A stretch of 64,000 bases of DNA from an uncultured Actinomycetota bacterium (GTDB lineage Bacteria > Actinomycetota > Actinomycetes > Sporichthyales > Sporichthyaceae): NCBI GenBank assembly GCA_963703165.1, contig OY969798.1, positions 4,622,585-4,686,584 of the forward strand, written 5' to 3'. The notes below the pieces were generated by a model. That model ran no database searches and was not told the DNA's origin. It saw only the letters and a list, made by a program, of their open reading frames with translations. Both the position numbers and the translations under genes were made by a program. Of the stretch, positions 7,304 through 30,887 are shown one piece after another. The first letter of the stretch is position 1. Every line of letters begins with the position of its first letter.

Positions 7304-7367
7304 CGTTCGCTCATAGAACAGCATGCTCGATATCAGAGCAAGTCCTGCTGCAGATCGGAGTGGCGCC

Positions 7368-8624: not shown

Positions 8625-8629
8625 GTGCG

Positions 8630-9601
8630 ATGAGTGCCAAGCCGTTCGCCTCCTCTGCCGACCTCACCGCGAAGACCGAGACCCTGGAGACCCTCGCCGA
8701 CGGCGTCTGGGCGTTGACCGCCGAGGGTGACCCGAACGTCGGCGCCATCGAGGGCAAGGACTTCGTCGTCGCCTTCGAGGCCCGGGCCACCCCGGCGGCG
8801 GCCCGAGACTGGTTGCGGCAGCTGCGTGAGCTGACCGACAAGCCCGTCAAGTATCTGATTCTCAGTCACTATCATGCTGTGCGGGTACTCGGGGCCAGCG
8901 CGTTCGACGCCGAGGTGATCGTCGCGCACGAGAACACTCGCAAGCTCATCGCGGAGCGGGGCAAGGAGGACTGGGACTCCGAATACGGCCGGATGCCGCG
9001 ACTGTTCAAGGAGCCGGAAGGGATCCCGGGACTCACGTGGCCCGATGTCACGTTCTCCGACAAGGTGACGATCGACCTCGGTGGGGACCGCGGCGAACTG
9101 GTGCTGCAGTACTGCGGCCGTGGGCACACGGCAGGTGACATCGTCGCGTGGTTGCCGCGGCAGCGGATCCTGTTCGCGGGGGACCTCGTCGAGGCACAGG
9201 CCGCGCTGTACACCGGGGACGCCTTCCACACCGACTGGTCCACCGGGACGTTGGACCGGGTCGGCGCCTTCGAGGCCGAGGTCGTCGTCGGGGGCCGCGG
9301 CATCGTGCCGCGCGGCCGCGAGGCGGTGGATGCCGCGATCGCGCAGACCCGGGACTTCCTGCTGGTGATGCGCCGTGAGGTCGGTGCTGCGCACACGGCC
9401 GGCGGGACGTTGCGCGACGCGTTCGAGGCGACCCACGCGGCCCTGGCGCCGCAGTACAGCCAGTGGCCGATCTTCGAGCACTGCCTGCCCTTCAACGTGC
9501 AGCGACTGTGGGACGAGTTCGACGGCGTCGACTGGCCCCGGATCTGGACCGCGCAGCGGGATCGCGAGGTCTGGGACCAGTTGCAGAGCGACCCGACGTG
9601 A
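8630..9601 (+). CDS. MBL-fold metallo-hydrolase
   Basis: ILSHYHAVRVLGASAF...GHTAGDIVAWLPRQRILFAGDLVE carries the HxHxDH-type metal site. The ATG at 8630 lies 5 nt after the StyA-like stop. Confidence 0.75.
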   Translation: MSAKPFASSADLTAKTETLETLADGVWALTAEGDPNVGAIEGKDFVVAFEARATPAAARDWLRQLRELTDKPVKYLILSHYHAVRVLGASAFDAEVIVAHENTRKLIAERGKEDWDSEYGRMPRLFKEPEGIPGLTWPDVTFSDKVTIDLGGDRGELVLQYCGRGHTAGDIVAWLPRQRILFAGDLVEAQAALYTGDAFHTDWSTGTLDRVGAFEAEVVVGGRGIVPRGREAVDAAIAQTRDFLLVMRREVGAAHTAGGTLRDAFEATHAALAPQYSQWPIFEHCLPFNVQRLWDEFDGVDWPRIWTAQRDREVWDQLQSDPT

Positions 9602-11175
9602 CACGAGCCGTTGCCGTCGTCGGCAACGGGCCGGTCGGGCAGACCACGGCTTTGCTGTTTGCGCGGTGGGGGCTGCGCGTGGTGCTGCTCGATGCGCGGC
9701 CGACACGGGATCGGGTCGGGTCGAAGGCGATCTGCCAGCAGCGGGATGTGCTTGATCTGTGGGATTCCCTCGGCGCGGGCTGTTTGGCGACCGAGGGACT
9801 GACGTGGACGACGGCTCGGACCTTCCATGGCGAGCGGGAGCTGCACCACTGGTCGTTCGTGGACCGTGGATCCTCACCGTTGCCACCGTTCGTGAACATC
9901 GGGCAGCACCGGACCGAACAAGTGCTGGACGAGCTCATTGCCCGTCAGCCCCTGATCGACGTGCGGTGGGGGTGCGAGGTCCTCGGGCTCGAGCAGGACC
10001 AGCACGGCGTCCGGTTGAGCTGCGCGGACGGTTCCGCGGTGGAGGTCGGTCACGCGGTGGTGGCAGCGGGGGCGCACGCCACTTCCTTGCGCGAGGCGTT
10101 GGGGGTGAGCTTCCTCGGCGAGACCTTCGCTGATCGGTTCCTCATCTGCGACATCCGCGTCGACCTTCCGGGGTGGGAGAGCGAGCGGCGGTTCTGGTTC
10201 TCCCCGCCGTGGAATCCGGACCGGCAGGTGCTGATTCATCCGACCCCGGACTCGGTGTTCCGCATCGACTGGCAGGTCCCGCCGGACTACGACCTCGCCG
10301 CGGACGAGGCGAGCGGGGGACTGGACCGTCGGATCCGCATGATCGTGGGGGAGCGGCCCTACGAGGTCGTGTGGCGCAGCGTGTATCGGTTCTCGTCGTT
10401 GGTGGTTGATCGCATGCGGGTCGGGAGGGTGCTGCTGGCCGGCGACGCCGCGCATCTGATGGCACCGTTCGGGGCGCGCGGGCTGAACTCCGGGGTCGCG
10501 GACGCGGAGAACGCGGCCTGGAAGATCGCCGCGGTCGAGCACGGCTGGGCGCCGAAAGAGTTGCTCGCGACCTACGACTTGGAACGTCGCGCCGCTGCCG
10601 TCGAGAACCTCGAGATCACCGGGGCGACGATGCGCTTCCTCGCGCCGGCGGACGCCGCGCAGTGGGAGGCGCGGCGGTTGGCGCTCGCGGATGCCGATGC
10701 GGATCCTGAGGCCGCAGCGCGCATCGACTCCGGGCGGTTCGCCGAGCCCTACTGGTACGTCGACTCGCCGCTGACCACATCCAGTGTCGACAGGCCGTTC
10801 GTGGGGCGACCGCCCAAGGGGCATGCACCGGCGCCGGGGCCGGGGGTACTGATCCCGGACCTGCCGATCTCCGACCCGCACCGGCCCGAGGTCACCCGGC
10901 TGCGGCAGCTCGTCCGTGACGGGGTGCTGGTGTTGGTGAGCGGGGGCTTCGATGTGCCTGCGCTGGGGGTCGCTGTGAAGGATGCGGTCGCGGCACCGAC
11001 CCGGACGCTCGCATTCACCGATCTCGTCGGTGGCAGCGATCTGGTCGCCATGGTGGCCGCAGGGCCGGACGAGGCGTGGGTGGTCCGGCCGGACGGGCAC
11101 ATCGCCGCCGTCGTGCGCGTGGGTGATGGCAGCGAGGCCGTGGTTGCGGCGGTCCGGCGGGCATGGGGGTTCTGA
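9598..11175 (+). CDS. FAD-binding aromatic-ring hydroxylase (PheA/TfdB/MhpA class A flavoprotein monooxygenase)
   Basis: The GTG at 9598 overlaps the MBL stop (GTGA). Motifs: GxGxxG (VAVVGNGPVGQTTALLFARWGLRVVLLD), the DG motif (HAVVAAGAH), and GD...G...N.G..DA (VLLAGDAAHLMAPFGARGLNSGVADAENAAWKIA). Confidence 0.8.
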   Translation: MTRAVAVVGNGPVGQTTALLFARWGLRVVLLDARPTRDRVGSKAICQQRDVLDLWDSLGAGCLATEGLTWTTARTFHGERELHHWSFVDRGSSPLPPFVNIGQHRTEQVLDELIARQPLIDVRWGCEVLGLEQDQHGVRLSCADGSAVEVGHAVVAAGAHATSLREALGVSFLGETFADRFLICDIRVDLPGWESERRFWFSPPWNPDRQVLIHPTPDSVFRIDWQVPPDYDLAADEASGGLDRRIRMIVGERPYEVVWRSVYRFSSLVVDRMRVGRVLLAGDAAHLMAPFGARGLNSGVADAENAAWKIAAVEHGWAPKELLATYDLERRAAAVENLEITGATMRFLAPADAAQWEARRLALADADADPEAAARIDSGRFAEPYWYVDSPLTTSSVDRPFVGRPPKGHAPAPGPGVLIPDLPISDPHRPEVTRLRQLVRDGVLVLVSGGFDVPALGVAVKDAVAAPTRTLAFTDLVGGSDLVAMVAAGPDEAWVVRPDGHIAAVVRVGDGSEAVVAAVRRAWGF

Positions 11176-11186
11176 CACGCGCCGAA

Positions 11187-11216
11187 GGCCGGCCCGGGAG
11201 GTGTCCCGGACCGGCC
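11187..11216. terminator. GC-rich hairpin between convergent genes (candidate bidirectional intrinsic terminator)
   Basis: GGCCGGCCCGGGAGGTGTCCCGGACCGGCC forms a nested stem-loop 12 nt after the hydroxylase stop and 20 nt before the stop of the minus-strand gene at 11236. Confidence 0.35.
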
Positions 11217-11235
11217 TGAGGCGTGCTGGTTGCTA

Positions 11236-12399
11236 CTACGAGGAAGCGATGACGCCACGAGCCTCGAAGTCGTAGGTGGTGCCACCGATCTGCAGGGCGT
11301 CGACCGCACCGTGGAACTGGGAGTCACGGCCCTTGCTGATCGCGACGCTGTAGATCGTGGCGTCCGGCACCGCGGCGAGAGCCTGGACCAGGGTGCAGCT
11401 GTTGGCCGCGCCGCAGTTGGTGTCGGTGCCGGTGCCGCCGGTGAAGTACCAGTACCCGTCGGTGGACGCGAACTGGGTCCACGCGTTGCTCGTCGCGGCC
11501 TTGGTCGGGACGAAGTTCAGGGTGCTGTAGGTGCGGCCGGGCAGGTTCGGGTCGACCTCGATGGCGATGTTCGGCAGGTTGCCGGCGCTGATCGCGTTGT
11601 TCTCGCCGGTCTGGTAGACCGAGAAGCTCGGCGAGCCGATGGAGGACAGGGCGTCACCGGCGAAGTCGACCTCGTTACCGAAGGCGGCCTTGTCCGCGGA
11701 GGTGCCCACGTTGATCTCGAGGCTTCCCTTGCCGGACGGCACGTCGGCCAGCGGGCCGGGGCCCTGACGCAGCTGCGAGGTGGCCGAGCCGATGACGTTG
11801 CGCAGGACGCTGCCCCAGTTGGAGTCCACGGCGGCGGAGGCCTCGAGGGCGTCGACACGGGAGTCCAGCGCGGCCAGGTCGGCGTTCACCGCGGCGAGGC
11901 CTGCAACCAGATCCTCGATCGTGCCCTCGGCGGCCTTGATGCGCAGGCGCAGGTTCTCGAGCGCGGTGTCGATCTGGGTGTCCTTGAGCTCGAGCGCGGC
12001 GATGTCGGCGGCCGTCGCGGTGTCAGCGGCCTGCAGGTCCTCGATGTTGCCGAACGCCTCGTCGAACGCCATGCCGACCAGCTCGGCGAAGCCCTCGAGG
12101 CCCTCGTTGAGCTCGTCACGGGCGTCGTCGGACAGGTCCTTGAGCTCGAGCGAGCCGTTGCGGACCTCGGTGCCGCGGACGGTGCCGTTCTCGATGTCGC
12201 GCCAGGTGACCGAGTTGGTCTTGATGTCGGCGCCGGAGACGGTGCCGTTCTTGATGTCCGCGCCGGAGAGCGAGTTGTTCTTGACGTCCTTGCCGGTGAT
12301 GAAACCGTCGGCGGCGGCGGTGCCACCGAGACCCAGGGCCACGACGCCGACGGCGACGGCGGCGATGACGGTCGGACGGCGCAGGTTGTTGAGCTTCAT
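11236..12399 (-). CDS. secreted repeat protein of unknown function (signal peptide, N-terminal short repeats, coiled coil, C-terminal beta-rich domain)
   Basis: MKLNNLRRPTVIAAVAVGVVALGLGGTAAA signal peptide; repeats GADIKNGTVSGADIKTNSVTWRDIENGTVRGTEVRNGSLELKDL; an Ala/Leu/Glu coiled coil; a C-terminal domain with conserved Cys (TDTNCGAANSCTL). No enzymatic motif. Confidence 0.5.
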   Translation of the reverse strand: MKLNNLRRPTVIAAVAVGVVALGLGGTAAADGFITGKDVKNNSLSGADIKNGTVSGADIKTNSVTWRDIENGTVRGTEVRNGSLELKDLSDDARDELNEGLEGFAELVGMAFDEAFGNIEDLQAADTATAADIAALELKDTQIDTALENLRLRIKAAEGTIEDLVAGLAAVNADLAALDSRVDALEASAAVDSNWGSVLRNVIGSATSQLRQGPGPLADVPSGKGSLEINVGTSADKAAFGNEVDFAGDALSSIGSPSFSVYQTGENNAISAGNLPNIAIEVDPNLPGRTYSTLNFVPTKAATSNAWTQFASTDGYWYFTGGTGTDTNCGAANSCTLVQALAAVPDATIYSVAISKGRDSQFHGAVDALQIGGTTYDFEARGVIASS

Positions 12400-12595
12400 T
12401 TCGTGTATCCCCCGTGTGAGTGTCTCTGTGCGCCGTTCCCAACCGGTCGGCGTTGAAGACAACTCTGCGGTGGATCACGAAGATCTACATCGGACGTGCG
12501 GCCCGTCCTGAATCATGTGAATGATGAGTCGCCATCCACCTTTCGGGTGAGATCGGATGAACGCCACCAGAAAGGAACCTGAGCGCCAGACCGGC

Positions 12596-13462
12596 TCAAC
12601 GCTCCCAAACGAGCGGGAAGAGGTCACTGTCGATGCGCTCGCCAGGCGTGAGGTCGGGCAGGTCGACGTGGCCCATGAGCTCGATGTTGCTCCAGGCGTC
12701 ACCGGGGTGCGGCGCCCAGCGCACGTCGTCGCCGGTGTAGACGAGCGTCGTCGCCCGGCGGGCCGTGCGCGCCACGTTGGCGGGGCTGCCGTGCACGGCA
12801 CGGGGGTGGTGCAGGATCACGTCGCCCGGCTCGCACTCGCCGATCAGCCACTCGTGGCGGTGGTACTCGGCGCCGAAGTCGGGGATGGCTTCGAAGCCCG
12901 CGTTGTCGTACACGGAGGCGACCGGGTTGGACTCCTTGAAGCTGCGCGCCCGGTAGATCGGCCCACGGTGCGAGCCCTTGAGGTAGTGCACGGCGCCGTT
13001 GCCGGTGTTCACCACGTCGAGCGGGATCCACAACCGGAGAACCTGATCACCCGTCACGGAGGTGTAGGGCTGATCCTGGTGAAACGGCGTCACCTTCTTC
13101 GAACCGACCTCGCGGGCGAAGATCTGGTCGAAATACAGGTTGAGCCGCTTGGTCGGGGCGAGCACCTGGCGGGCGATCTCCACGCCGGGGCCGGACAGGG
13201 CCCACGCCCGGTGCACCGGGTCGAGGCGCCAGGCATAGGTCAAGGTGAAGAAGCGAGGGCCGTCGCCGCCCGCGAAGTCCATCGAGGGCACGCTCTCGGC
13301 CTGCATCAGGCGATCGGTCGCGGCGCGCAGCGCCTCGATCCAGGACATGGGCAGGATTCGGCGCAGGACGGTCGCGCCGTCCCGCCGGTAGTCGGCGATC
13401 TCGCCCGGCCCGACATTGCGAAGCGGCCCCTCGGTCGGGGCTACCTGTATCGCTCCGGTCAT
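12596..13462 (-). CDS. PhyH-family Fe(II)/2-oxoglutarate dioxygenase
   Basis: HxD...H facial triad context (FHQDQPY...AVHYLKGSHRGP...ILHHPRAVHGSP) typical of the phytanoyl-CoA dioxygenase family. The ATG at 13462 is preceded by a GAAAGGA ribosome-binding site. Confidence 0.7.
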   Translation of the reverse strand: MTGAIQVAPTEGPLRNVGPGEIADYRRDGATVLRRILPMSWIEALRAATDRLMQAESVPSMDFAGGDGPRFFTLTYAWRLDPVHRAWALSGPGVEIARQVLAPTKRLNLYFDQIFAREVGSKKVTPFHQDQPYTSVTGDQVLRLWIPLDVVNTGNGAVHYLKGSHRGPIYRARSFKESNPVASVYDNAGFEAIPDFGAEYHRHEWLIGECEPGDVILHHPRAVHGSPANVARTARRATTLVYTGDDVRWAPHPGDAWSNIELMGHVDLPDLTPGERIDSDLFPLVWER

Positions 13463-13489
13463 CACACCCATAGGTCCTTTCAATCACCT

Positions 13490-13537
13490 GCGACGTCCGA
13501 CGAACACCGTCCTACGGGTCAGTTCGTCGGACGTCGC
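13490..13537 (-). terminator. perfect 16-bp-stem hairpin downstream of the alkene/CoM operon
   Basis: GCGACGTCCGACGAAC-N16-GTTCGTCGGACGTCGC lies 14 nt after the stop of the last operon gene (13551) on the minus strand, followed by a T-containing tract. Confidence 0.5.
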
Positions 13538-13550
13538 TTGCGCAGTGAGG

Positions 13551-14654
13551 CTATTTCGTCAGCTCGGCACGGACGATCGCAGCGCCGTCGGCCAGGGCAC
13601 GGAGCTTGTTCTGCGCGATCATGCGCGGCAGGTTGATCAGCCCACAGTCGGTGCCCAACCCGAGCCGTTCGGCCGGAACGAACTCCATGACCGAGCGGAT
13701 GCGGTCCGCGACCTCGTCGGCGGTCTCCGTGATCGTGCTCTTCACGTCGATGACGCCGGCCACGAACGGCTTGTCCCAGTTGGCGTCGGCCAGCGGCTTG
13801 AGGTCGTCGGGTCCGGTGCGGCCGACCTCGTAGTTCAACGCGGTCACGTTCAGTTGGGTCACCTGCGGGAAGACGGCCTGGGCGCGGTGGGTGCCTGCGT
13901 TGCGGTCGCGGCTGCCGAGCACCGAGGCGTTCCAGACGTCCTTCTCCGTGTCATCGGGCGCGTAGCCGGGCGTGCCCGAGTAGTTGCCCCAGCAGGTGTG
14001 CACCCAGACGTCGCAGCTGACGCCCTCGACCGCGGTGTTGAAGGCGTCGACCTCCCAGTCGCCCATCCCGTAGGGCCAGACGAACTCGTCCATCTGGATG
14101 ATGTCGCAGCCGTTGTCGGCCAACTGCTTGAAGTCCTCGTTGAGGGCCCTGCCGATGGCCTGGGAGAGCTTCTTGATGTCGCCGTAGTGCGTATCGGTCG
14201 CGGCGGCTGCCAACACGCCCACGCCGCAGTAGGAGACCTTCACCGGCTTCTTGGTCGCCTTGCGCACGGCGCGCAGCGTGGCGAGGTGGAACGGGTGCTC
14301 CCGTTTGACGTCGCCGACGCAGGTGGGGGAGTAGAGCGTCGAATAGATCGGCAGCGGGATGGGCGGGCCGGACATCTTGAAGCCGGTCATCCGCTCGTAG
14401 TAGTGGTACACGAAGCCGGCGTAGGCGCTGTCGCCGCCGAAGACCTTGCCGTCGGAGATGATGTCGATCCCCGACATCTCCTGGTCGTGCACGATCGCCA
14501 GCACCGCGTCCTCGAGCGCCTCACGGCTGATCGTGTCGTAGATGAACTCGCCCTTGGGGAAGGTCGCGAACGCCTGCCCGTCGTACCACCGCGGATTCGG
14601 GTAGTTGCCGACCATCGAGGTGGGCAGAAGGATGTCTTGATTTCCGACTCGCAT
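13551..14654 (-). CDS. etnE: MetE-like zinc alkyltransferase; candidate epoxyalkane:coenzyme M transferase (EaCoMT, XecA/EtnE-like)
   Basis: The 367-aa protein has the cobalamin-independent methionine synthase C-terminal fold and Zn ligands (IQMDE, VHTCWGNY, GTDCGL). The ATG at 14654 has a GAGGAG ribosome-binding site. The gene sits directly downstream of 2-KPCC and a short-chain dehydrogenase in the same operon. Confidence 0.6.
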   Translation of the reverse strand: MRVGNQDILLPTSMVGNYPNPRWYDGQAFATFPKGEFIYDTISREALEDAVLAIVHDQEMSGIDIISDGKVFGGDSAYAGFVYHYYERMTGFKMSGPPIPLPIYSTLYSPTCVGDVKREHPFHLATLRAVRKATKKPVKVSYCGVGVLAAAATDTHYGDIKKLSQAIGRALNEDFKQLADNGCDIIQMDEFVWPYGMGDWEVDAFNTAVEGVSCDVWVHTCWGNYSGTPGYAPDDTEKDVWNASVLGSRDRNAGTHRAQAVFPQVTQLNVTALNYEVGRTGPDDLKPLADANWDKPFVAGVIDVKSTITETADEVADRIRSVMEFVPAERLGLGTDCGLINLPRMIAQNKLRALADGAAIVRAELTK

Positions 14655-14676
14655 GGGGCCAGCTCCTCTGGATCGA

Positions 14677-15411
14677 TCAGATCGATGTCCATCCACCGTC
14701 GAGCACGACGGCGGATCCGTTCATGTACGAAAGCCTGCCGGTGGCCAGCAGGGTGATTGCCTCGGCGATGTCGTCGGGAGCGGCGACTCGACCGAGCGGA
14801 ACCTTCGTCTCGATTGCCTCCCGTAGTTCCGGAACGTCCAACCGCCAGGCGGTCATCGGGGTGTGCACCATCCCGGGGCAGATGGCATTGGACCGGATGC
14901 CGGACGGTCCGTAGTCAACCGCCAGCGACTTCGCGAACATCAGGGCGGCACCCTTCGAGGTCGTGTACGCGCAGCGTCCAGGGAAGGCCACCATCCCTGC
15001 CACGGACGCGACAGTGATGACGTGACCGGACCTGCGCTCGAGCATGCCGGGAAGCACGGCGCGTGCACAGAGGTACGGGCCGCGAACATTGACCGCGTGC
15101 ACCCTGTCCCACTCCTCGATCGGGGTGGTGTGACAGGGCCCGGCCGCCGGGGAGCCGGTGATCCCCGCGTTCGCGACGAGCACGTCGACCCGGCCGAACT
15201 CGCGGAGGACGGCCTCGAAGGCGCCGCCGACGCTCGCTGCGTCGGCGACATCGACCTGAGCGGAGAATGCGGCGGAGCCGGCGACCTGCTTCGCCGCGTC
15301 GGCGTCCAGGTCGAGCACAGCGACCTGGAGACCGTCGGCGATCAGGCGCGCGCATGCGGCTGCCCCGATGCCGGAGCCGCCACCTGTGACCACCGCGACC
15401 GCGGCACTCAC
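14677..15411 (-). CDS. short-chain dehydrogenase/reductase; candidate 2-hydroxyalkyl-CoM dehydrogenase
   Basis: TGGGSGIG Rossmann motif, NAG, and a YxxxK catalytic motif (CAYTTSKGAA). The GTG at 15411 overlaps the 2-KPCC stop (GTGA). Length is 244 aa. Confidence 0.7.
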   Translation of the reverse strand: MSAAVAVVTGGGSGIGAAACARLIADGLQVAVLDLDADAAKQVAGSAAFSAQVDVADAASVGGAFEAVLREFGRVDVLVANAGITGSPAAGPCHTTPIEEWDRVHAVNVRGPYLCARAVLPGMLERRSGHVITVASVAGMVAFPGRCAYTTSKGAALMFAKSLAVDYGPSGIRSNAICPGMVHTPMTAWRLDVPELREAIETKVPLGRVAAPDDIAEAITLLATGRLSYMNGSAVVLDGGWTSI

Positions 15412-17006
15412 AGGTCGGTGAGATCCGTGTTGCCGGCGCGCAACCGGGAGAGTTGGATGAAGTGCTCCGGGTTGAGGAACAGCTCGTTCATCCACCCGAT
15501 CTCGTCGATCGTGATGCCCTTCTTGATGAGGTAGTCCAGATACTGGAACGCGTCCTTGGCGCCCATGCCGACGTGGTGCGCGCCGAGCATGCGGCGCGAC
15601 TTGTTGTCGTAGATGCACTTCTGGAATCCGGTCAGTTCCGGCCGGGTGTGCGCGTAGAGCATGGTGCCCTCCGACAACGGCAGGCAGATCTCGTCGTTGC
15701 GGATGCCCTTGGGCGGCATCTGAATCACCGTGATGTCGCCGTACTGCTCCCGGGCCTCCTCCTCGGACAGACCTACCCAGGTGACCTCGTACGTGGTGTG
15801 CAGGAAGTCGGGGTACTCCGAGAAGTCGAACTCGATGTCCTCCCCGGCGATGTTGCGGGCCGCGGTGACGCCGCACTTGCGGGCCTTGAACATCTCCATC
15901 GGGGAGCCGATGAGGTCGCCGATCGCATACACGCCCGGGACGTTGGTCTGCATGCGGCCGTTGACCTTCACGAAGCCCTTCTCGTCCACCTCCACACCGA
16001 GGGTGTCGACGTAGATCTGCGAGGCCGGACGTTCGCCGGTGCCGATGAAGACGAACGAGGTCTCGAAGATTTTCTCGGACCCGTCGGCAAGGCGCACCCG
16101 GACACCGGTGACCGCGCCGTTGATGTCAGCTGTGTCGCCGAGGACCTCGAGCGGTTCGCAGCCCTCGACGATGTCGATGCCGCGCAGCTTCATGTTATCC
16201 ACGACGTAGGTCCGCAGGTCTTCGTCGACGTGGTGCATGCTCTGCGTCCGCATCAGCGGGCTGCGGGACAGGATCGTGGTCCGGCAGCCGGCCGCCTGGT
16301 AGAAGGAGCCGTACTCCATCGCCACCTTGGACCCGCCGATGATCACGCAGCTGTCCGGCTCGAAGTCCAGGCCCGGGTCGATCAGCGAGGCGAAGTCGTA
16401 AACCCCCGGCCTGTCGAGGCTCAGGCCCTTGATCTCCGGCGGGACGTAGGTGTGCGCGCCGGTGGCGAGGACGAGGTTGTCCGAGGTGAAGATCCGTCCG
16501 GCGGCCTCGACGCGGAACTTGCCGTCCTCCGGGGGGAGCACCGTGGCCCACGCGTTGAGAATGTACTCCATGTCCAGTTGTTCCTTGGACTGCCAGTTCA
16601 TGAAGGCGTGCGCGTTGTTCCGGCCGTTCTTGAACAGGTTGATCATGTCGACGATCGAGGCCCTGGACTCATCGAACTTGGGGAACCAGAAAGTGTCGGA
16701 GTTCCAGCGCATGTAATCCATCTCGCGCGCAGCCTCGGAGAAGAGATGGTGCGGGACGCAGGCCTGGTGGGGGCATGAGCCACCGAGGAACGGCCACTTC
16801 TCGACGATGAGCTGGCGCAGCTCGCGGGCTTGGGCGAATGCCGAGCCGAAGCGCCCACCGGCCCCACCGCCGACGTAGATGACGTCGTAGTGGGTGCCCT
16901 TCTCCGTGTGCACATTCTCCAGCGGCTCGGTGACCTCACCAACCTCCGCCTGGTGGATGAGGGTCTCCCACTCGGCCATCGTCAGGTGCGTCTCGCGCAG
17001 GTCCAT
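15408..17006 (-). CDS. xecC: NADPH:2-ketopropyl-CoM oxidoreductase/carboxylase (2-KPCC, DSOR family, XecC-like)
   Basis: QLIVEKWPFLGGSCPHQACVPHHLF redox disulfide, MEMFKARK, DFLHTTYEVTWVGLSEEEAR, and a C-terminus FQKCIYDNKSRRMLGAHHVGMGAKDAFQYLDYLIKKGITIDEIGWMNELFLNPEHFIQLSRLRAGNTDL. This C-terminus carries F-x4-H (FLNPEHF) in place of the usual DSOR His/Glu. All of this matches Xanthobacter 2-KPCC as I remember it. The ATG at 17006 is preceded by an AGGAAGGA ribosome-binding site. Confidence 0.75.
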   Translation of the reverse strand: MDLRETHLTMAEWETLIHQAEVGEVTEPLENVHTEKGTHYDVIYVGGGAGGRFGSAFAQARELRQLIVEKWPFLGGSCPHQACVPHHLFSEAAREMDYMRWNSDTFWFPKFDESRASIVDMINLFKNGRNNAHAFMNWQSKEQLDMEYILNAWATVLPPEDGKFRVEAAGRIFTSDNLVLATGAHTYVPPEIKGLSLDRPGVYDFASLIDPGLDFEPDSCVIIGGSKVAMEYGSFYQAAGCRTTILSRSPLMRTQSMHHVDEDLRTYVVDNMKLRGIDIVEGCEPLEVLGDTADINGAVTGVRVRLADGSEKIFETSFVFIGTGERPASQIYVDTLGVEVDEKGFVKVNGRMQTNVPGVYAIGDLIGSPMEMFKARKCGVTAARNIAGEDIEFDFSEYPDFLHTTYEVTWVGLSEEEAREQYGDITVIQMPPKGIRNDEICLPLSEGTMLYAHTRPELTGFQKCIYDNKSRRMLGAHHVGMGAKDAFQYLDYLIKKGITIDEIGWMNELFLNPEHFIQLSRLRAGNTDLTDL

Positions 17007-17017
17007 GGTTGTCCTTC

Positions 17018-18016
17018 CTAGGGCGTGGCAGGCGTCTCGACGACCACCGCTGGGGTGAAGGCGTCGAAATAGATGTTCCGAGGCCGCACGCCGGCGCCGG
17101 TCAACAGCGGCACAGCGGCGGAGATCATGGGGGGCGGACCGCACAGGTACACGTCGTGGCTCAGGGTCGGGGACCAAGCGGCGATCGCGTCGGTCACGAA
17201 ACCGCCGACAACCGGGTGGAACTCGAAGCCGGGAAGTCGATCGCCGATGGCTGCGATCTCCTCGACGAGGTACAGGTCGGCCTCGGTGCGCGCTCCGAAG
17301 AAGAAGGTGATCGGGCGGTCGAACGCTTTGTCGGCGCAGTCACGGAGCAGCGACAGGATCGGCGCGAGACCGGAGCCACCGGCGATCATCAGCACGGGGC
17401 GGTGCGACAGGCGGATCCGTAGCTGACCGTACGGGCCGTGAACTCGGACGGGGTCGCCGGCGGTGGCCGCGCCGAGGAAGCGGGAGAACGCCCCGTCCGG
17501 GTACAGCTTGACGATCAGGTCGACCCGATCGTCCTGAGCCGGCGCGTTCGCCAACGAGAACGTTCGGACCAGGCCCGACGCGGGGACCTCCACGTTGACG
17601 AACTGCCCGGCGACGAAGGGCATCCGTTCGCCGACGATGCTCAGCCGGATGGCGGCGATGTCCGCGGTCAAGTGCTCGATCGAGTCCACCACGGTGTCGT
17701 AGGGCCGTGAGGTGTCGCCGGAGAGAAACTCGCCCTCGGTCAGCCCGGTGGGGTCGACGTCGACGACACAGTCCTCCAGTGGCACGCTCGCGCAGGCGAG
17801 CATCAGATCCTCGGCCCGGTCCTCGCTCGTCAATGCGAACGAGGACCCGTGCTCTTCGACGTCGCCGTCGACCAGTCGCACCTTGCAGGTCCCGCAGCCG
17901 CCGTACTTGCAGCCGTACTTGAGTAGCAGGTTGTTGCGCAGAGCGCCCTCGAGCACGGTTTCGGTGTCCGCGCACTCATACGAGTGCCCGAACGGCTCGA
18001 TGGTGATCTGCGGCAT
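17018..18016 (-). CDS. etnD: alkene monooxygenase reductase component ([2Fe-2S] ferredoxin plus FNR-like FAD/NAD domains; AmoD/EtnD-like)
   Basis: Plant-type ferredoxin cysteines (CKYGGCGTCKV...LACASVP), then RxFS (RTFSLAN) and a GGSGLAP NAD-binding motif. The ATG at 18016 lies 5 nt after the alpha-subunit stop. Confidence 0.8.
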   Translation of the reverse strand: MPQITIEPFGHSYECADTETVLEGALRNNLLLKYGCKYGGCGTCKVRLVDGDVEEHGSSFALTSEDRAEDLMLACASVPLEDCVVDVDPTGLTEGEFLSGDTSRPYDTVVDSIEHLTADIAAIRLSIVGERMPFVAGQFVNVEVPASGLVRTFSLANAPAQDDRVDLIVKLYPDGAFSRFLGAATAGDPVRVHGPYGQLRIRLSHRPVLMIAGGSGLAPILSLLRDCADKAFDRPITFFFGARTEADLYLVEEIAAIGDRLPGFEFHPVVGGFVTDAIAAWSPTLSHDVYLCGPPPMISAAVPLLTGAGVRPRNIYFDAFTPAVVVETPATP

Positions 18017-18021
18017 CGGAC

Positions 18022-19524
18022 TCAGCCGGCCAACGGGTTGCGGATCTCGTACCCGATCGCGCGGATGTCGTCGATCGTCCACATGCGCGGCAGGTCGAGC
18101 ATCGGCTGACCGATCAGGGTGTGCCCGTCGGGGCGGACCCCGCCCATGTCGAGGATGACGTCGGCCAGGTCCCAACCGTGGTAGCGCTCCCAGAACTGCT
18201 TCCGGTGGCGGTAAGCCTCGGGCCAGTTGCTGAAGACCCACTCGCAGCCCTCGCTGCACAACGCGTAGTTCTTCCCGCCCAGGTCGACGATGCGGGCTTC
18301 GTTGCAGTCCAGGCGCGGCATCACGCACGGCATCTGGCAGACCTGGCAGATCGGCGGCAGCCCAGGGAGCTCCTGCAACATCAGCCGGCCTACGGCAGGA
18401 TCGGCGAGGGCGCGGTAGCCCTCCCAGTAGCCCTGGTAGTAACCGGACCACCCGGGATAGTTGTTCTCGAACCACTCGAAGTCCGCCGGACCGGGGGCGT
18501 CCATCCGCCAGAAGTTCAACGGCCAGATCGCCCCGAGCACCTGGGCGATGGTGTGGTGACCCCACGTCACATCGTTGGCCGCGGCGGCCAGGCGGGAGGG
18601 TGGACGGACCCCGAACTCGGAGAGCCGTTCGACGAAGCCGCCGACGAAGTCGTCGACGACCCATTCCTCCCACTGGTTCTTGTAGCTCCACGGCCGGACC
18701 TTCGAGCCGTACTCGGAGGCGAACCCGACGAGCAGGTCAAACAGGCGGTGGCTGTGCCAGAAGTGCCGGTCCAGCGACTTGTTGAGGATCGGGACGTTCT
18801 CCTCCTCTGCCAGCAGCATCATGATCGCGCCGTAGCCATTGGCCATGTGCCGGGCCTCGTCGGACTGGATCGACATCATGACGCTGGCCAGCGCGTTGTC
18901 GCCGTTGGCCACGGCGACCTGCGGTGTCGCCACGAGCAGGATGTTGGTGTACGCGGTTTCCACGACGATGTTGAGCGCGACGATGCAGTCCAGGGGGTCA
19001 CCGGTGTTGAAGTGCTGGAACTCCCCGATGGTGGCCTGGGTCGCGGGGTGCAGGTACATGGAGCGCTGCCCGACGTCCCACCCGGCTGGGTCGGGGGAGT
19101 TGCGCACGTAGTAGTTGCGCAGCGACATCTCCAACTGCGCGTGGCGTACCTCGTCGAGCATCTGGGCGTTATAGCCCTGGCGCATCTCCTGGTTGTCGAT
19201 CGCCGAGATGATCATCCCGCAGCCGGCGACGGCCTGGTACTCCGCGTTGGTGAGGATCGGCAGGACCGGCTTCATGATCTCGTTGAAGCGCGGCTCGGCG
19301 CGGGTTGCCTCACGCATCCGCACGGCGCCGTCGAGAAACGCATGGGTGCGGTCGTCCTTCTCAGCCTCCATCTTCATGTAGTCCCGGATCAGGACGCGGA
19401 ACGGATCCTTGCCCTTCTTCGGCAGTTTGAACTTCGTCTCGAACTTCGGGCGTGACGTGACCGAGGTGAAGTCCCAGTCGTAGGACTTCGTCTTCTCGTG
19501 CAGCGCGCTGAGACTCGATGGCAT
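18022..19524 (-). CDS. etnC: soluble di-iron alkene monooxygenase alpha (hydroxylase large) subunit (AmoC/EtnC-like)
   Basis: The 500-aa protein carries the two di-iron-carboxylate motifs (DEVRHAQLEM; SIQSDEARHMANGY). It is a soluble di-iron monooxygenase (SDIMO) alpha-fold protein. The ATG at 19524 is preceded by AGGACTGAGGAA. Confidence 0.85.
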   Translation of the reverse strand: MPSSLSALHEKTKSYDWDFTSVTSRPKFETKFKLPKKGKDPFRVLIRDYMKMEAEKDDRTHAFLDGAVRMREATRAEPRFNEIMKPVLPILTNAEYQAVAGCGMIISAIDNQEMRQGYNAQMLDEVRHAQLEMSLRNYYVRNSPDPAGWDVGQRSMYLHPATQATIGEFQHFNTGDPLDCIVALNIVVETAYTNILLVATPQVAVANGDNALASVMMSIQSDEARHMANGYGAIMMLLAEEENVPILNKSLDRHFWHSHRLFDLLVGFASEYGSKVRPWSYKNQWEEWVVDDFVGGFVERLSEFGVRPPSRLAAAANDVTWGHHTIAQVLGAIWPLNFWRMDAPGPADFEWFENNYPGWSGYYQGYWEGYRALADPAVGRLMLQELPGLPPICQVCQMPCVMPRLDCNEARIVDLGGKNYALCSEGCEWVFSNWPEAYRHRKQFWERYHGWDLADVILDMGGVRPDGHTLIGQPMLDLPRMWTIDDIRAIGYEIRNPLAG

Positions 19525-19535
19525 CTGTGGGTTCC

Positions 19536-19841
19536 TCAGTCCTTGAACCGGTCGGGTTGGATGTCTGCGTAGATGTCGACCCGGCCGTCGCCCACGACGA
19601 TGCGCCCGTAGTAGCTGGCCATGTTCACCAGGAAGATGCTGGTGTCGATGTCCCGCCCGGCGATGTCGGACAGCTCGGTCATGTCGAAGCTCAGGACGTC
19701 GTCGCACTCGATCTTGTAGAAGCAGTCGCGGAAGTCGATGACCGCGTTGGGCTGACTTTCCGTCACATGCTCGACGGCTGCCTGGGTGTCGGAGGAATTC
19801 ATCAAGGAGATCCCGACGCGGCGCTTGGTGGTGGTGCTCAT
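19536..19841 (-). CDS. etnB: monooxygenase coupling/effector protein (MmoB/DmpM family; AmoB/EtnB-like)
   Basis: The 101-aa protein MSTTTKRRVGISLMNSSDTQAAVEHVTESQPNAVIDFRDCFYKIECDDVLSFDM... Its ATG at 19841 overlaps the beta-subunit stop (ATGA). Confidence 0.7.
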   Translation of the reverse strand: MSTTTKRRVGISLMNSSDTQAAVEHVTESQPNAVIDFRDCFYKIECDDVLSFDMTELSDIAGRDIDTSIFLVNMASYYGRIVVGDGRVDIYADIQPDRFKD

Positions 19842-20875
19842 GCCGACATCCCTGCCTCGTCGAGCGCCTGGCGCTGACGCTCGAGAGAACGGGTCAACGC
19901 TTCTTTCGCGCCCGCCTCGTTGACGCCGGCCGCGGCGAAGGCGGCGAGGAATGCGGTGGCTGCCGCCTCGCAGCGCGGGCCCCAGTCGTCGAGCCAGCCT
20001 CCGATGACCTTGGCGTTGTCGCCGCCGGTGTCCGGGTCCGCACACACCAGGCGAACCAGGGCGGCCACCCCGGTGATGTGCCGGTCGGTGTCCCGGATGG
20101 CTCCGGCGAGCACCGCGGGGGTCGCGCCGTCGCCGGCGTGCGCGGCGCGGTGGCTGAACAACTCGCTCTTGGCCAGACTGCCCAGCAGGGGTTCGAACAC
20201 CAGCGTGGTGATCACCAGGGCCTCGACCCAGTCCTCGCAGGCCACCAGGTGCTCGACGAGTTCTCGGATCGGCACCAGCGCAGGGTCGGACATCCAGGCC
20301 TCGCGCGCACCGGCGTCGGTGAAGGACTCGTCGGACTCGCCGAGATGATCGAGATGGAAGACGATGTCCTGGAGCAGGCGCATCCGGTCCGCGGCCTGGA
20401 ACACCACGGTGAACTGCACGGTGTCCGACATGGCTTGCCGGACGCCGTAGGCCAGGGACAGGAAGAGCCCGTACTCGACGAACGGCCAGGCGGCGTAGAG
20501 CCGACCCAGCACCTCGTCACGCCACGGGCCGGCCGCACTCGTGCCGCCGGGGCGGGTGAGCACGGGCAGGGTCCGTGCGAGCGCCTGTTGGTCCTGATTC
20601 GTGGCGCTCACGAAGGGGCGTTGCCACATGCCCGCCGGGTCGCGGTAGTCCCGCCACATGCTTGTGCGCACCGCGCTGCTGTCGTCGCTCCACGGCGGGG
20701 TGCCGTCGTCGAAGCGCACCGGCCAGTCGATGTGCAGCCACTGCCCGGGATCCGACTGCTGGCCGATCGTGTACGACTCGTACTCACTGGGCTTCCGCCG
20801 CGCCGGGGTGAACCAGGTGAAATTTCGATCGCCGGAGAATTCCTCAGCCGTGTGGCCGGGCACCGTCGCCGTCAT
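19838..20875 (-). CDS. etnA: soluble di-iron alkene monooxygenase beta (hydroxylase small) subunit (AmoA/EtnA-like)
   Basis: The 345-aa SDIMO beta-type protein is first in the operon. The gene order beta, coupling, alpha, reductase is the group-4 alkene monooxygenase arrangement. Confidence 0.75.
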   Translation of the reverse strand: MTATVPGHTAEEFSGDRNFTWFTPARRKPSEYESYTIGQQSDPGQWLHIDWPVRFDDGTPPWSDDSSAVRTSMWRDYRDPAGMWQRPFVSATNQDQQALARTLPVLTRPGGTSAAGPWRDEVLGRLYAAWPFVEYGLFLSLAYGVRQAMSDTVQFTVVFQAADRMRLLQDIVFHLDHLGESDESFTDAGAREAWMSDPALVPIRELVEHLVACEDWVEALVITTLVFEPLLGSLAKSELFSHRAAHAGDGATPAVLAGAIRDTDRHITGVAALVRLVCADPDTGGDNAKVIGGWLDDWGPRCEAAATAFLAAFAAAGVNEAGAKEALTRSLERQRQALDEAGMSA

Positions 20876-21035
20876 GGACCGCCTCCTCGTTGAGGACCTC
20901 CGAGGTCAGTGACGCTAGACACGTGCAGAAGGGCGTTCCTCTACCGATCCGGATGAAGTTTGTAGGGGAGTGTCGATCGGTTCTTACTCCCATCCGGGGT
21001 AGACAGTGCCGGGGTAGGCGTGGCTGGATGACGGG
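20876..21035. promoter_or_regulatory. divergent promoter/operator region between the alkene monooxygenase operon and the GAF-PucR regulator
   Basis: The 160-bp spacer contains the inverted repeat GGGGAGTgtCGATCGgttcttACTCCC around a CGATCG core. Confidence 0.3.
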
Positions 21036-23166
21036 GTGACGCTGCTGGCTGCGCGGGTCGGAACGACCTGGCCCACGCTCATCGAGACCCTGCTCGGGTC
21101 GAGAGCTGCTGCCGTCTCGGCGCCGAGGGTCGTCACCGAGACCGTGGCCGAACTGGCCGAGGCGCAAACCGTGGGCATTGTCGAGTGGGTGCGTGACGTG
21201 CCGAGCGTCGTGCACGAGGTCGGGCCGCCGTTGACCTTGACCGTCCGCCCGCCGGCGGGCCGGGCGGATGTCGCCGGCGTTCCCGCGGTGGTCGTCCAGG
21301 TCGATGACCACCGGGACCTGGTGGTGTTGCGCCCGGCAGGCGCCCCGGCGTTCACCGCCGAGGAGGCTGCCGCCATCGAGGCGGTCAGCACACTGCTCGG
21401 GCACTCCGCGGCGTTCGGTCGCAGGGAAGCCGCGGAGACGTTGAACCGGCTTGCGCGGGAGATCGTCGGCACCCTCGACCTCGACCGGGTGCTGCTCTCG
21501 ATCGCCAACTCCGCCGCCCGGTTGCTGGCCTCCGAGGTCACCGGCGTGCTGCTCGTGCACGGTCCGCCCGATCGCCCGGAACTGCGCATGCGCTGCACCG
21601 TCGGGCACCACTCGCCGGAGACTGCCCGGCTACGCATCCCCGCCGGTCGAGGTATGGCCGGCAAGGTGCTGGAGACCGGACGGCCGGCCCGGGTGGACAA
21701 CTACGCGACGGCGGAGTCGATCACCAAGGACTACCTGCCGATCGCGATCGAGGAGGGCACGCACTCCGGCCTCGCCGTGCCCGTGCTCGACGCCGGCGGG
21801 GCGATCATCGGGGTCCTGGCCGCCTGGCGGATGCGCCCCTCGGTCTACACCGACGAGGACGAGCAGGTTCTCGTCTCCTTGGCCGGTCTCGCGTCCATCG
21901 GTCTGGTCAACGCGCGGGCCTACAGCGACCAGCAACGGGTGACCGCCGAACTGGAGGCCGCGCGCACGGAACTGGCCGACCGGCTGGCCATCTCCGACGA
22001 GGCGGTCTCGATCCACCGTCGGCTGACCGCGATCGCGGCCGAGGGGCAGGACCTGTCGCGGTTGGCCGTCGCCGTGCAGGAGATCGTCGACGGCCCCGTG
22101 GTGATTGTGCCCAGCAGCGACCGCTCGGGCGCGCGCTGGCCGCCCGGGGCCGACGTCCCGCGCGAGCAGGACAGCCGACCCCTGCGCGTCGTGGCAGCCG
22201 AGAGCGGAAGGCTCCGGGCCCGTCTGGGTCCGGGTACCCATCGAGGCCGCGGGAGTGCAGCACGGCGTCCTGCACGCGCGGCTGCCCGCCCGGCCGCGGC
22301 CGCGGGACGTCGTCACCCTCGAACAGTCCGCCGTGATCTGCGCCCTGTTGCTCGGCCACGAGGACGCCGTTGCCGCAGCCTCGGCCCGGTTGCGTTCGGA
22401 GTTCGTCTGGGACCTGCTGGAGGGCCGCGGCGACGCGGATCAGGACAACGCGCTGCGGGCGGTCGCACTCGGCCTGCGCCTGGCGTTCCCGGCTCGGCTG
22501 CTCCTGCTGCGTGGCCGAGGGTTGCGGGAACTGGGCCGGAGCGAGGGATGGACTGCCGAGCAGGCCGAACGCAACCGCATCTGGTGGGGTGGGCGGGTCG
22601 CCTCCGCCGTCGAGGAGTTGACCGGGCACCTGGTCCCCGTGGCGCACCGTGACGAGCACGTGATCGCCATCCTGCCCGCGGCGGATGCCACGGCGGCCCA
22701 CGCGGCGGCGGCGGCTGCCCGATGTCCGTTCGGCGACGTCGTGGTGCAGGGCGGGCTGAGCCGCGAGGTGCCGGGACCTGCCGGACTGCCGCAGGCGCTG
22801 CACGAGGCGCGCGTCGCACTGGCCGCGGTGCCCGCCGGTGCCGCGGTCATGCGTTTCGACGACCTGGGGGTGCTCCAGTTCCTGGTCGCGCCCTCGGGCG
22901 GGGAGGGCCTGCACGCCTTCGCGGCCGGCGTGCTGGGGGACCTGATCGCCTACGACCGCAAGCACGGCACGGAGCTGATCGCGACGCTGGACAGCTGGTT
23001 CGAGAACAGCTGCAGTGTCGCGGGCACGGCGCGGGCGATGCGGGTGCACACGAAGACGTTGGCGTATCGGCTCCGCCGGATTCAGGAGGTCTCGGGCCTG
23101 GATCTGACCGATCGTCAGCGCCGCCTGGACGTCGAACTGGCGTTGCGGGTTCTCGGCCCCACGTGA
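21036..23166 (+). CDS. GAF-domain PucR/CdaR-family transcriptional regulator (frame switch near 22215-22235)
   Basis: The N-terminal frame (21036..22652) has a GAF domain (LDLDRVLLSIANSAARLL...AIIGVLAAWRMRPSVYTDEDEQVLVSLAGLASIGLVNARAY). The C-terminal frame (22105..23166) has a PucR C-terminal HTH (MRVHTKTLAYRLRRIQEVSGLDL). The two overlap out of frame, which implies a 1-nt indel. The gene is divergent from etnA. Confidence 0.6.
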
Positions 23167-23241
23167 ACTGTCGGCGCATGGCGCCCCGACGACACGCGAA
23201 CGGCAGTTTTCTTTCGCGATCGTGGGGGTAGGAGCGGCCGC

Positions 23242-23796
23242 GTGCTGCTGCTGAGACTGCCCGGCGTGTCCTGCCCGGACGACGACACCGCGATGTTGCT
23301 GGACTGCGTGCTCGAGCAGGACCTTGCCCCGGGGGCGAAGGTTCTGGATCTCGGGACGGATCCCGGCCTGATGGCCGGCCTGCTGGAGCAGGCCGGGGCG
23401 GAGGACGTGTCCACCATCGACCTGGGGCGTCGGCTCGGGCGGGCCCGGCTGCGCAGCCGGCGGATGCGCGACCGCTTCGACCTCGTCGTGGCCAACGTCC
23501 CCTTCCTCGCCTGCGGCGTCGAGGGCCGCGGTCGCCTGGACCGCATCTGCCGCGCCGCGCCCCGTCTTCTGGCCGAGGGTGGCGCCCTGTGGCTCGTGCA
23601 ATCCGAACTGTGCGACCCGCAGCTCACGCTCGGCCACCTGGCCGGCTCCGGGCTGCAGGCGCGGATCGTCGAGCGGGGCGAGGTCGCCTTCGGGCCCGCC
23701 ATGTGGTCCCGTGCGGCCGCGTTGCGCGCGCAGGGACGCATCGGCTCCGACCAGTGCACCGAGGACATCGTGGTGATCCGTGCCACTCGGTCCTGA
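23242..23796 (+). CDS. Mtq2/HemK-like class I methyltransferase paralog with degenerate SAM and substrate motifs (likely inactive)
   Basis: It shares its N-terminus (VLLLRLPGV...DDT.LL) and overall fold with the gene at 26093. Motif I reads DLGTDPG (versus DIGTGTG) and motif IV reads NVPF (versus NPPY). It is about 30 aa shorter. Confidence 0.5.
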   Translation: MLLLRLPGVSCPDDDTAMLLDCVLEQDLAPGAKVLDLGTDPGLMAGLLEQAGAEDVSTIDLGRRLGRARLRSRRMRDRFDLVVANVPFLACGVEGRGRLDRICRAAPRLLAEGGALWLVQSELCDPQLTLGHLAGSGLQARIVERGEVAFGPAMWSRAAALRAQGRIGSDQCTEDIVVIRATRS

Positions 23797-29219: not shown

Positions 29220-29220
29220 G

Positions 29221-30228: not shown

Positions 30229-30887
30229 CTCAGGTCTCCATGCGGGCGTCAGCCGCGCACGGTGGACGCGTAGTCCGGACCTGCCGCACCACGTCACTCC
30301 TCCCGGGTCATCACCGATCCGCGGCATTGTGGCTCACTCGGCGCGCTGCCCGCTGCGGCGTACGGCACACGGAAGAGCTGTGTTGCGTATGTCTCCCCAG
30401 GTCAGGGAGAGGATCAGAAGACCGGGCCGACGTCCGCGGCGACGATGTCGTCCAAGGCGGGTTCGGCCACCGCGGCGGCGGCCGGGCGAGGCAGGGCCAG
30501 CGTCAGGCCCGAGGCGGCCAGTCCGGCTAGCAGGGTGCGACGGCTCGGCGCGATCACACCGCTAGCTTACACCGTAAGTCTGTGTGGTGAGGATCGTTCC
30601 GGATCGCTCAGAACGGCAGGCGGCGACCGCTCGGCGAACGACGATCCACCTCGAATTGCGGGCGCGGGCGTGCGGGTCGGCGGATCTGGATCTGGTTGGA
30701 CATCGAAGCTCCCCGTCCTCGGCATCCTGACCTCCTCCGGTGCGGCCCGACCCTGGTGCCGGGAGTCAAATACTTCCCAGTAGGCCTGGGGATCAATCCG
30801 CTTGTGAGTAGGTCGTTTCTTGCATGAAGTACACGGGGTGCTTGTTTCGGCTGAAGTCACCGACTGTGAACTCTTATGACCACGCAA

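Follow-up and report, generated by a model that had tools for sequence, protein, structure and literature searches.

A probable seven-gene alkene monooxygenase and coenzyme M operon in a Sporichthyaceae-like chromosome

Genes and boundaries of the locus

The window analysed here is a 64-kb stretch of DNA from an uncultured actinobacterium of the family Sporichthyaceae (GenBank assembly GCA_963703165.1, contig OY969798.1, positions 4,622,585 to 4,686,584). On its minus strand, at 13551-20875, lie the genes of a four-component soluble di-iron monooxygenase (SDIMO) and three genes for enzymes of coenzyme M (CoM) dependent epoxide metabolism. Seven consecutive open reading frames (ORFs) fill this interval exactly (ORF scan and start-codon assignment), in the order given by a first-pass annotation made from the DNA letters alone. 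The first gene (19838-20875, 345 aa, ATG start) encodes the beta subunit of an SDIMO hydroxylase, similar to PmoA, AmoA and EtnA (Pfam Phenol_Hydrox, 6.8e-50). It is followed by a coupling or effector protein of the MmoB/DmpM family (19536-19841, 101 aa; Pfam MmoB_DmpM, 3.9e-21), the alpha subunit of the hydroxylase (18022-19524, 500 aa), which falls in the propene-monooxygenase (Pmo/Amo) subgroup of SDIMO group 4, and an NADH:ferredoxin-type reductase (17018-18016, 332 aa; Pfam Fer2, FAD_binding_6 and NAD_binding_1). Next come a 2-ketopropyl-CoM oxidoreductase/carboxylase (hereafter 2-KPCC) of the disulfide oxidoreductase (DSOR) type (15408-17006, 532 aa; Pfam Pyr_redox_2 and Pyr_redox_dim), an XecD-like short-chain dehydrogenase/reductase (SDR) that is a putative R-type 2-hydroxypropyl-CoM dehydrogenase (HPCDH; 14677-15411, 244 aa, GTG start) and, as the last gene of the operon, a MetE-like epoxyalkane:CoM transferase (EaCoMT) resembling EtnE and XecA (13551-14654, 367 aa; Pfam Meth_synt_2). 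Each of the seven assignments agrees with its Pfam domains, and NCBIfam gave an equivalog-level name to none of the seven proteins. There is no room for a further ORF between the four monooxygenase genes. The GC content at third codon positions (GC3) is high in all seven frames (0.83-0.94), which supports real coding.

The genes are tightly packed. Overlaps of 4 nt join the beta gene to the coupling-protein gene (ATGA) and the 2-KPCC gene to the SDR gene (GTGA). The remaining junctions are gaps of 11 nt between coupling protein and alpha (with GAGGAA), 5 nt between alpha and reductase, 11 nt between reductase and 2-KPCC (with GGAAGGA) and 22 nt between SDR and transferase (with GAGGAG). Shine-Dalgarno-like purine runs lie 5' of the non-overlapping starts, and GGAGG stands 8 nt 5' of the beta ATG. 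Measurement thus bears out the junction types listed in the first-pass annotation.

Upstream of the beta gene, a 160-bp intergenic region (20876-21035) would serve as a divergent promoter/operator region, and it contains two motifs that are conserved in seven related loci, including the pmo locus of Mycolicibacterium chubuense NBB4. One of these, TAGCGT (20917-20912), lies 37 nt 5' of the beta ATG and fits the actinobacterial TANNNT -10 pattern; the other is GTCTACCCCGGATGGGAGTA, at 21004-20985. The divergent gene (21033-23166, plus strand), which is frameshifted in the window, encodes a CdaR-family regulator with GAF, GGDEF_2 and PucR helix-turn-helix (HTH) domains identified by Pfam. A CdaR-type regulator also adjoins pmoABCD in NBB4 and in Mycobacterium sp. 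M156 (PMC8784404).

At the other end, the perfect 16-bp hairpin claimed in the first-pass annotation is present (13490-13537, minus strand). It is GC-rich, and its arms (13490-13505 and 13522-13537) are complementary at 16 of 16 positions around a 16-nt loop, with a folding energy of -38.8 kcal/mol (z = -5.0 against shuffles). The hairpin begins 13 nt 3' of the last stop codon and therefore lies just outside 13551-20875. Two Sporichthyaceae metagenome-assembled genomes (MAGs) carry a related operon, and one of them (L004) has the hairpin at the same position with two changes that appear, by eye, to be compensatory; the other (L003) has a different, 10-bp hairpin there. Since the position is kept in both, a role as a transcript-end or stabilising element is supported and seems probable.

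The seven genes are probably translated from a single transcript, for which the overlaps, short gaps, upstream motifs and hairpin give indirect support. Two features count against an end at the hairpin: it is not followed by a T-tract, and a PhyH-family gene lies on the same strand 67 nt beyond it, so that read-through is possible. The missing T-tract would also suit a locus in which the monooxygenase genes and the CoM-pathway genes are merely adjacent and have internal promoters, the hairpin being a protein-binding palindrome or an element like the repetitive extragenic palindromes. SDR and EaCoMT genes do lie elsewhere in related lineages, so the two modules are separable, and start sites might in principle fit into the gaps of 11 and 22 nt. 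Against such separate transcription units, a normal promoter would find no room at junctions that either overlap by 4 nt (in two cases) or leave 5-22 nt free, and the junction that runs from beta through coupling protein, alpha and reductase to 2-KPCC is conserved in NBB4 and in five further loci (L083, L085, L086, L003 and L004). A scan of 12400-21400 for consensus sigma-70-like promoters and terminators found nothing, although such a scan is ill-suited to high-GC actinobacteria and its weight here is small. We regard separate units as very improbable and retain the single transcript.

The GC content of the operon (66.4% against 70.1%) is the lowest within the window. Recent horizontal acquisition was considered on this ground, but the GC3 of the operon is in line with that of the neighbouring genes, so that composition yields no clear signal of acquisition. 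The genes around the operon are of a chromosomal kind, coding for a penicillin-binding protein, KaiC, an SPFH protein and two-component systems, and the window looks chromosomal.

Enzyme assignments

The alpha subunit shares 75% identity with PmoC of Mycobacterium sp. M156, 74.5% with the Pmo alpha subunit encoded on plasmid pMYCCH.01 of NBB4 and 64% with AmoC of Halieaceae strain PE-TB08W, against 57-59% with EtnC of Nocardioides JS614 and NBB4 (58% for JS614). A look-up of its exact sequence matched no record, so that the collection queried does not contain the source organism. A neighbour-joining tree without bootstrap joins it to the Pmo/Amo sequences, apart from those of Etn. It aligns with MmoX over its full length and keeps equivalents of all six di-iron ligands (E114, E144, H147, E209, E243 and H246). 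Membership of group 4 has been set at an alpha subunit at least 50% identical to members (PMC11825192), and the protein passes this cut-off against every Pmo, Amo and Etn reference compared. The same 2025 SDIMO review assigns propene monooxygenases to group 4, subgroup C (PMC11825192), which by these alignments is the predicted place of the alpha subunit. The group-4 monooxygenase of the first-pass annotation is thereby upheld and its subgroup refined to the propene (Pmo/Amo) rather than the Etn type. Identity to the NBB4 pMYCCH.01 proteins is 63% for beta and 60% for the reductase. The listed alpha subunits at least 50% identical to that of the window fall into some 95 clusters when grouped at 90% identity, and most come from metagenomes of soil and freshwater; only 22 group-4 sequences were catalogued in the 2025 review (PMC11825192).

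The assignment of 2-KPCC is strongly discriminated from other flavoproteins. Against Xanthobacter 2-KPCC (PDB 1MO9) the protein scores 525 bits (E = 1.5e-156, 49% identity), whereas lipoamide, glutathione, mercuric and other flavoprotein disulfide reductases score at most 116 bits, a gap of more than 400 bits. In the alignment to 1MO9, equivalents of R56, C82, H84, C87, H137, M140, M361, R365, F501, H506 and Q509 are all kept. These comprise the redox CxxxxC motif (CPHQAC, aligned with C82 and C87), the CoM sulfonate-binding arginines R56 and R365, and H137 and M140/M361 around the substrate. The sequence ELFLNPEHF, which corresponds to ELFLNPTHF of 1MO9, carries the Phe501/His506 pair that replaces the His-Glu dyad of DSORs. 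The same key residues are invariant in 15 homologues. Confusion with an ordinary DSOR, a danger raised in the first-pass annotation, would have shown as a best match to such an enzyme and loss of the F-x4-H signature; instead 1MO9 is the best match and the signature is intact. Identity to the JS614 and NBB4 proteins is 74-79% (79% for the copy on pMYCCH.01), and when the operon was compared with plasmids by megablast the 2-KPCC gene alone was matched, at about 77%.

The SDR is closer to R-HPCDH (PDB 2CFC; 244.5 bits) than to S-HPCDH (PDB 4GH5; 147.9 bits), and shares 49.8% identity with XecD against 40% with XecE. Alignment to 2CFC indicates that the protein has equivalents of the catalytic S142, Y155 and K159 as well as of the two arginines that bind the sulfonate, R152 and R196. 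The enzyme appears to be an R-type HPCDH, with a stereospecificity predicted from these comparisons. Its JS614 and NBB4 homologues are 64% identical.

The transferase shares 72-73% of its residues with EtnE of NBB4 and JS614 and 45.5% with XecA. The next class of match, annotated as MetE-like methionine synthase, reaches about 32%. An EaCoMT is expected to share more than 65% identity with EtnE, against less than 35% for methionine-synthase-like proteins (a gap noted in PMC11507031), and the protein lies on the EtnE side on both counts, which disposes of the genuine methionine synthase that the first-pass annotation had set as the alternative. The zinc motif, H219-x-C221 with C337, is invariant in alignment with XecA and EtnE.

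Because sulfonate-binding arginines are kept in both 2-KPCC and the SDR, these residues argue that the thiol used by the operon is CoM, which would be made elsewhere in the genome. For the same reason, a module running on some other thiol is unlikely.

Predicted pathway and its alternatives

We consider it likely that the seven genes form a self-contained operon for the catabolism of a short-chain 1-alkene, propene being the likeliest, in a Sporichthyaceae-like actinobacterial chromosome. The transcript would run from the conserved promoter beside the divergent GAF-PucR gene to the hairpin. The four-gene group-4 monooxygenase would epoxidise the alkene with NADH and O2, and the zinc enzyme EaCoMT would open the epoxide with CoM to give a 2-hydroxyalkyl-CoM. 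This would be converted to the 2-ketoalkyl-CoM by the single R-type SDR with NAD+. Finally, 2-KPCC with NADPH would cleave the thioether reductively and carboxylate the enolate, so that propene would give acetoacetate and CoM would be regenerated. The complete alkene-to-ketoacid route claimed in the first-pass annotation is thus matched in its catalytic steps, but not by CoM-biosynthesis genes in the window. Propene is favoured because the alpha subunit is of the Pmo/Amo type, the regulator is Pmo-type, and the CoA-transferase/ligase module of ethene systems is absent. Substrate and stereochemistry are both inferred.

Several points weigh against this reading. The propene degraders Xanthobacter Py2 and PE-TB08W have both R and S dehydrogenases (PMC6440738), no second XecD- or XecE-like gene was found in the 64-kb window, and with one R-type dehydrogenase the S-epoxide would go unhandled. 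The substrate ranges of NBB4 Pmo and Etn overlap across C2-C8 (PMC8784404), so that membership of a clade does not fix the growth substrate. No CoM-biosynthesis genes were found in the window by tblastn with the comA/xcb set of JS614, and there are none near the operon in four relatives (L003, L004, L086 and L087); the CoM supply is thus a prediction, and the genes may sit elsewhere in the genome. The regulator gene, lastly, is frameshifted.

The single SDR is also what would be expected of an operon for ethene (or vinyl chloride), in which the 2-KPCC homologue would act on 2-ketoethyl-CoM. 2-hydroxyethyl-CoM is achiral and one dehydrogenase would therefore be enough. Action of a 2-KPCC homologue on 2-ketoethyl-CoM has been proposed for JS614 and JS60 and, to our knowledge, never demonstrated. 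NBB4 Pmo oxidises ethene too (PMC8784404), and the three CoM-pathway enzymes are closer to their JS614 and NBB4 counterparts (EaCoMT 72%, 2-KPCC 74-79%, SDR 64%) than to those of Xanthobacter (45-50%), although greater identity to actinobacterial proteins may merely mirror host phylogeny. Against ethene stand the place of the alpha subunit in the Pmo/Amo group (75% to PmoC versus 57-59% to EtnC) and a regulator of the Pmo-type GAF-PucR kind rather than the EtnR1/EtnR2 MEDS pair. In addition, JS614 and NBB4 have a CoA-transferase pair and an acyl-CoA ligase flanking etnEABCD, and the window lacks these genes: tblastn with JS614 queries found no CoA-transferase, ligase or MEDS-regulator homologue in the whole window, and the PucR HTH part of the JS614 regulator matched the divergent regulator gene. 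On balance an ethene operon, although the chief rival reading, is unlikely, and we continue to prefer propene.

Alkene monooxygenases tend to favour the R-epoxide. One R-type dehydrogenase would fit the high stereoselectivity that the 2025 review ascribes to these enzymes (PMC11825192), and would fit ethene equally well.

The regulator bears on whether the operon works at all. A net +1 indel near 22190-22210, where the linker is poorly conserved, splits it into two reading frames (21033-22187 and 22171-23163), and tblastn with an intact 722-aa orthologue returns two pieces, in frames 3 and 1. In six other loci (L003, L004, L083, L085, L086 and L088) the regulator is one ORF of 710-750 residues. 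The frameshift could be an assembly error or mark a real pseudogene, and expression of the operon with such a regulator is something we can only infer. This lesion, together with the failure to find CoM-biosynthesis genes nearby, would be consistent with a decaying or silent remnant, or with an epoxide-detoxification or co-metabolic module in a host that may not make CoM; methanotrophs do use CoM-dependent epoxide modules to detoxify epoxides, without growth (PMC11507031). Such a remnant is, however, hard to reconcile with seven intact structural genes, native-like GC3 and conserved catalytic residues. The regulator is intact in the orthologous operons of four other assemblies, and a lone indel at so weakly conserved a place might have arisen in assembly. 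We give the remnant or detoxification module little probability, less than the ethene operon, and keep to a growth pathway on propene.

A more specific form of the proposal is tentative and, on present evidence, doubtful: the seven genes may form a minimal, portable cassette with which uncultured Sporichthyaceae of soil turn alkenes into beta-ketoacids, detached from the genes for CoM biosynthesis and CoA transfer and with a strictly R-selective monooxygenase, so that one dehydrogenase suffices. If this were true, its spread in soil metagenomes would make group-4 alkene oxidisers far commoner sinks of biogenic propene and ethene than the some 22 sequences catalogued in 2025 suggest. The locus bears in any case on whether one R-type dehydrogenase is sufficient for propene assimilation if the monooxygenase is highly R-selective. 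At 7.3 kb the compact cassette could be cloned as a unit, for example into Mycolicibacterium smegmatis with CoM supplied.

Gene order in relatives and in known systems

Species-representative genomes were scanned with a 2-KPCC profile, which gave 235 matching places, and the seven proteins were mapped on the best 80 loci. The full seven-gene order, plus one extra gene, occurs in the Sporichthyaceae MAGs L003 and L004, which are syntenic with window 6940-23784 at about 83% nucleotide identity. The extra gene encodes a luciferase-like (LLM) protein and lies between 2-KPCC and SDR (about 10045-11000 in L004). L086 and L087, contigs of soil metagenomes produced by different projects, have the identical seven genes, order and divergent regulator, with alpha subunits 92% identical to that of the window. 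Other relatives are arranged differently. In L089 and L090 the regulator is followed by EaCoMT-beta-coupling-alpha-2-KPCC-SDR-SDR, without a reductase gene. L085 has EaCoMT and SDR upstream on the opposite strand and CoM-biosynthesis genes downstream; a Chloroflexota MAG (L022) has SDR-SDR...EaCoMT-beta-coupling-alpha-reductase-2-KPCC; and in Kribbella orskensis (L015) 2-KPCC comes first. Gene order in the family is thus fluid, with related lineages shuffling the same parts. The recurring core of the Pmo-type clade is beta-coupling-alpha-(reductase)-2-KPCC, and the SDR and EaCoMT genes behind this core are a feature of one lineage.

The 235 places with 2-KPCC homologues are mostly in Actinomycetota, with some in Chloroflexota and Dormibacterota. 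The proteins at the best 80 (L003-L082) are 59-92% identical. Most of these loci lack a group-4 monooxygenase within 10 kb, and CoM-biosynthesis genes lie within the same distance at about 37 of them. Group-4 monooxygenases and 2-KPCC homologues are far more widespread in uncultured members of these three phyla than the literature records.

Several neighbouring genes deserve mention. The PhyH-family dioxygenase gene 3' of the hairpin occupies 12596-13483 (minus strand), and PhyH and LLM genes adjoin the regulator in L089 (2674-4493) and L090 (2662-4481); both look like recurrent accessory genes of Pmo-type clusters. The operons of these two Sporichthyaceae loci, which have no reductase gene between alpha and 2-KPCC, span 7382-14649 and 7329-14690, respectively. 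The operon strand also carries, 3' of the PhyH gene, a 408-aa ORF (11236-12462, minus strand) with a strongly coding GC3 of 0.93; neither Pfam nor NCBIfam matches it, and L004 has it conserved, with 69% of nucleotides identical. A few kilobases beyond the operon, on the plus strand, lie genes for a StyA-like flavin epoxidase (7317-8624; NCBIfam StyA, 517 bits, a little under the cut-off of 550) and an FAD-dependent aromatic-ring hydroxylase (9463-11175); window 6940-10869, which includes the former and most of the latter, is conserved in L004. Further away, at 27774-30333 on the minus strand, a KaiC-family ATPase gene stands beside one that encodes a SpoIIE phosphatase carrying a KaiB domain at its C-terminus.

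Literature searches returned no description of this arrangement, nor of alkene oxidation in Sporichthyaceae. All the enzymes are of known kinds, and each keeps every family signature examined in its sequence; it is the one-operon, transferase-last layout that is undescribed in cultured strains. For the actinobacterial propene oxidisers Mycobacterium M156, NBB4 (Pmo) and Rhodococcus/Gordonia B-276, there is hardly any description of what lies downstream of the monooxygenase genes, and here a Pmo-type enzyme is physically linked with all three CoM-pathway enzymes in one probable transcript. We propose that the locus represents the known alkene/CoM pathway in a new gene organisation, real and probably functional. 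The first-pass annotation had called the order unrecognised. This holds in so far as it is neither the etn nor the xec layout, both of which it gave in agreement with public records (transferase first in each, two dehydrogenases in xec). It does not hold for the first five genes, whose order is found on NBB4 pMYCCH.01, nor for the full order of seven, which recurs in the uncultured soil actinobacteria represented by L086 and L087.

The etnEABCD systems of Nocardioides JS614, Mycolicibacterium JS60 and NBB4 pMYCCH.02 share with the window a group-4 monooxygenase with the same four-gene order, an EaCoMT that is 72% identical, and homologues of 2-KPCC and the SDR on the same replicon. They differ in that (i) the transferase precedes the monooxygenase, whereas in the window it is the last gene; (ii) in JS614 and on pMYCCH.02, CoA-transferase genes and a ligase gene precede etnE-etnABCD, whereas the window has neither; (iii) 2-KPCC and the SDR are encoded several kilobases off, on the opposite strand, whereas the window has both in the operon; and (iv) the regulators are a MEDS and PucR pair (EtnR1/EtnR2) rather than the Pmo-type GAF-PucR protein. 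A system of etnEABCD type is recognised by having etnE directly upstream of etnA and, next to them, genes for CoA-transferase and ligase; the window has neither feature.

The xec system of Xanthobacter autotrophicus Py2 has its chemistry in common with the window, as well as the three enzyme families (EaCoMT 45.5%, 2-KPCC 49% and R-HPCDH 50% identical). As in the window, xecC (2-KPCC) is followed by xecD (R-HPCDH) with a 4-nt overlap, and monooxygenase genes lie nearby on the same strand. The order in Py2 is xamoABCDEF, an oppositely oriented gene, xecA-(xecB)-xecC-xecD-xecE and then CoM-biosynthesis genes. Its monooxygenase is a six-gene group-1 enzyme, whereas that of the window is a four-gene group-4 enzyme; its transferase gene comes first rather than last; and it has a second, S-specific dehydrogenase that the window lacks. 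Of the marks of a Xanthobacter-type four-component system, a pair of R- and S-specific dehydrogenases and linked comA/xcb genes, the window shows neither.

A further close counterpart is pmoABCD of NBB4, carried on pMYCCH.01, and of Mycobacterium sp. M156, where the monooxygenase genes have the beta-coupling-alpha-reductase order of the window. On pMYCCH.01 a 2-KPCC gene likewise follows the reductase gene on the same strand, and the pmo locus shares with the window a divergent CdaR/GAF-type regulator and the promoter-region motifs. The NBB4 regulator (L002 11503-12426) corresponds to the GAF part alone, residues 14-296 of 722, of the full-length regulator; it adjoins pmoA, and an IS1380 transposase gene lies near it. 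The cluster on pMYCCH.01 ends at 2-KPCC, whereas that of the window continues with the SDR and EaCoMT genes. About 840 bp without a listed gene follow the NBB4 2-KPCC gene (L002 18336-19179), and no remnant of either gene was found there. An R-type SDR gene lies some 5.5 kb off on the opposite strand, next to genes for CoA-transferase and CoM biosynthesis. The 29.5-kb stretch of pMYCCH.01 that was examined showed no EaCoMT gene, and tblastn against a plasmid collection locates the EaCoMT of NBB4 on pMYCCH.02. The NBB4 cluster is plasmid-borne, whereas the window looks chromosomal. Public MAGs and metagenomes already contain the variant described here, although it had drawn no remark, and pMYCCH.01 foreshadows part of it.

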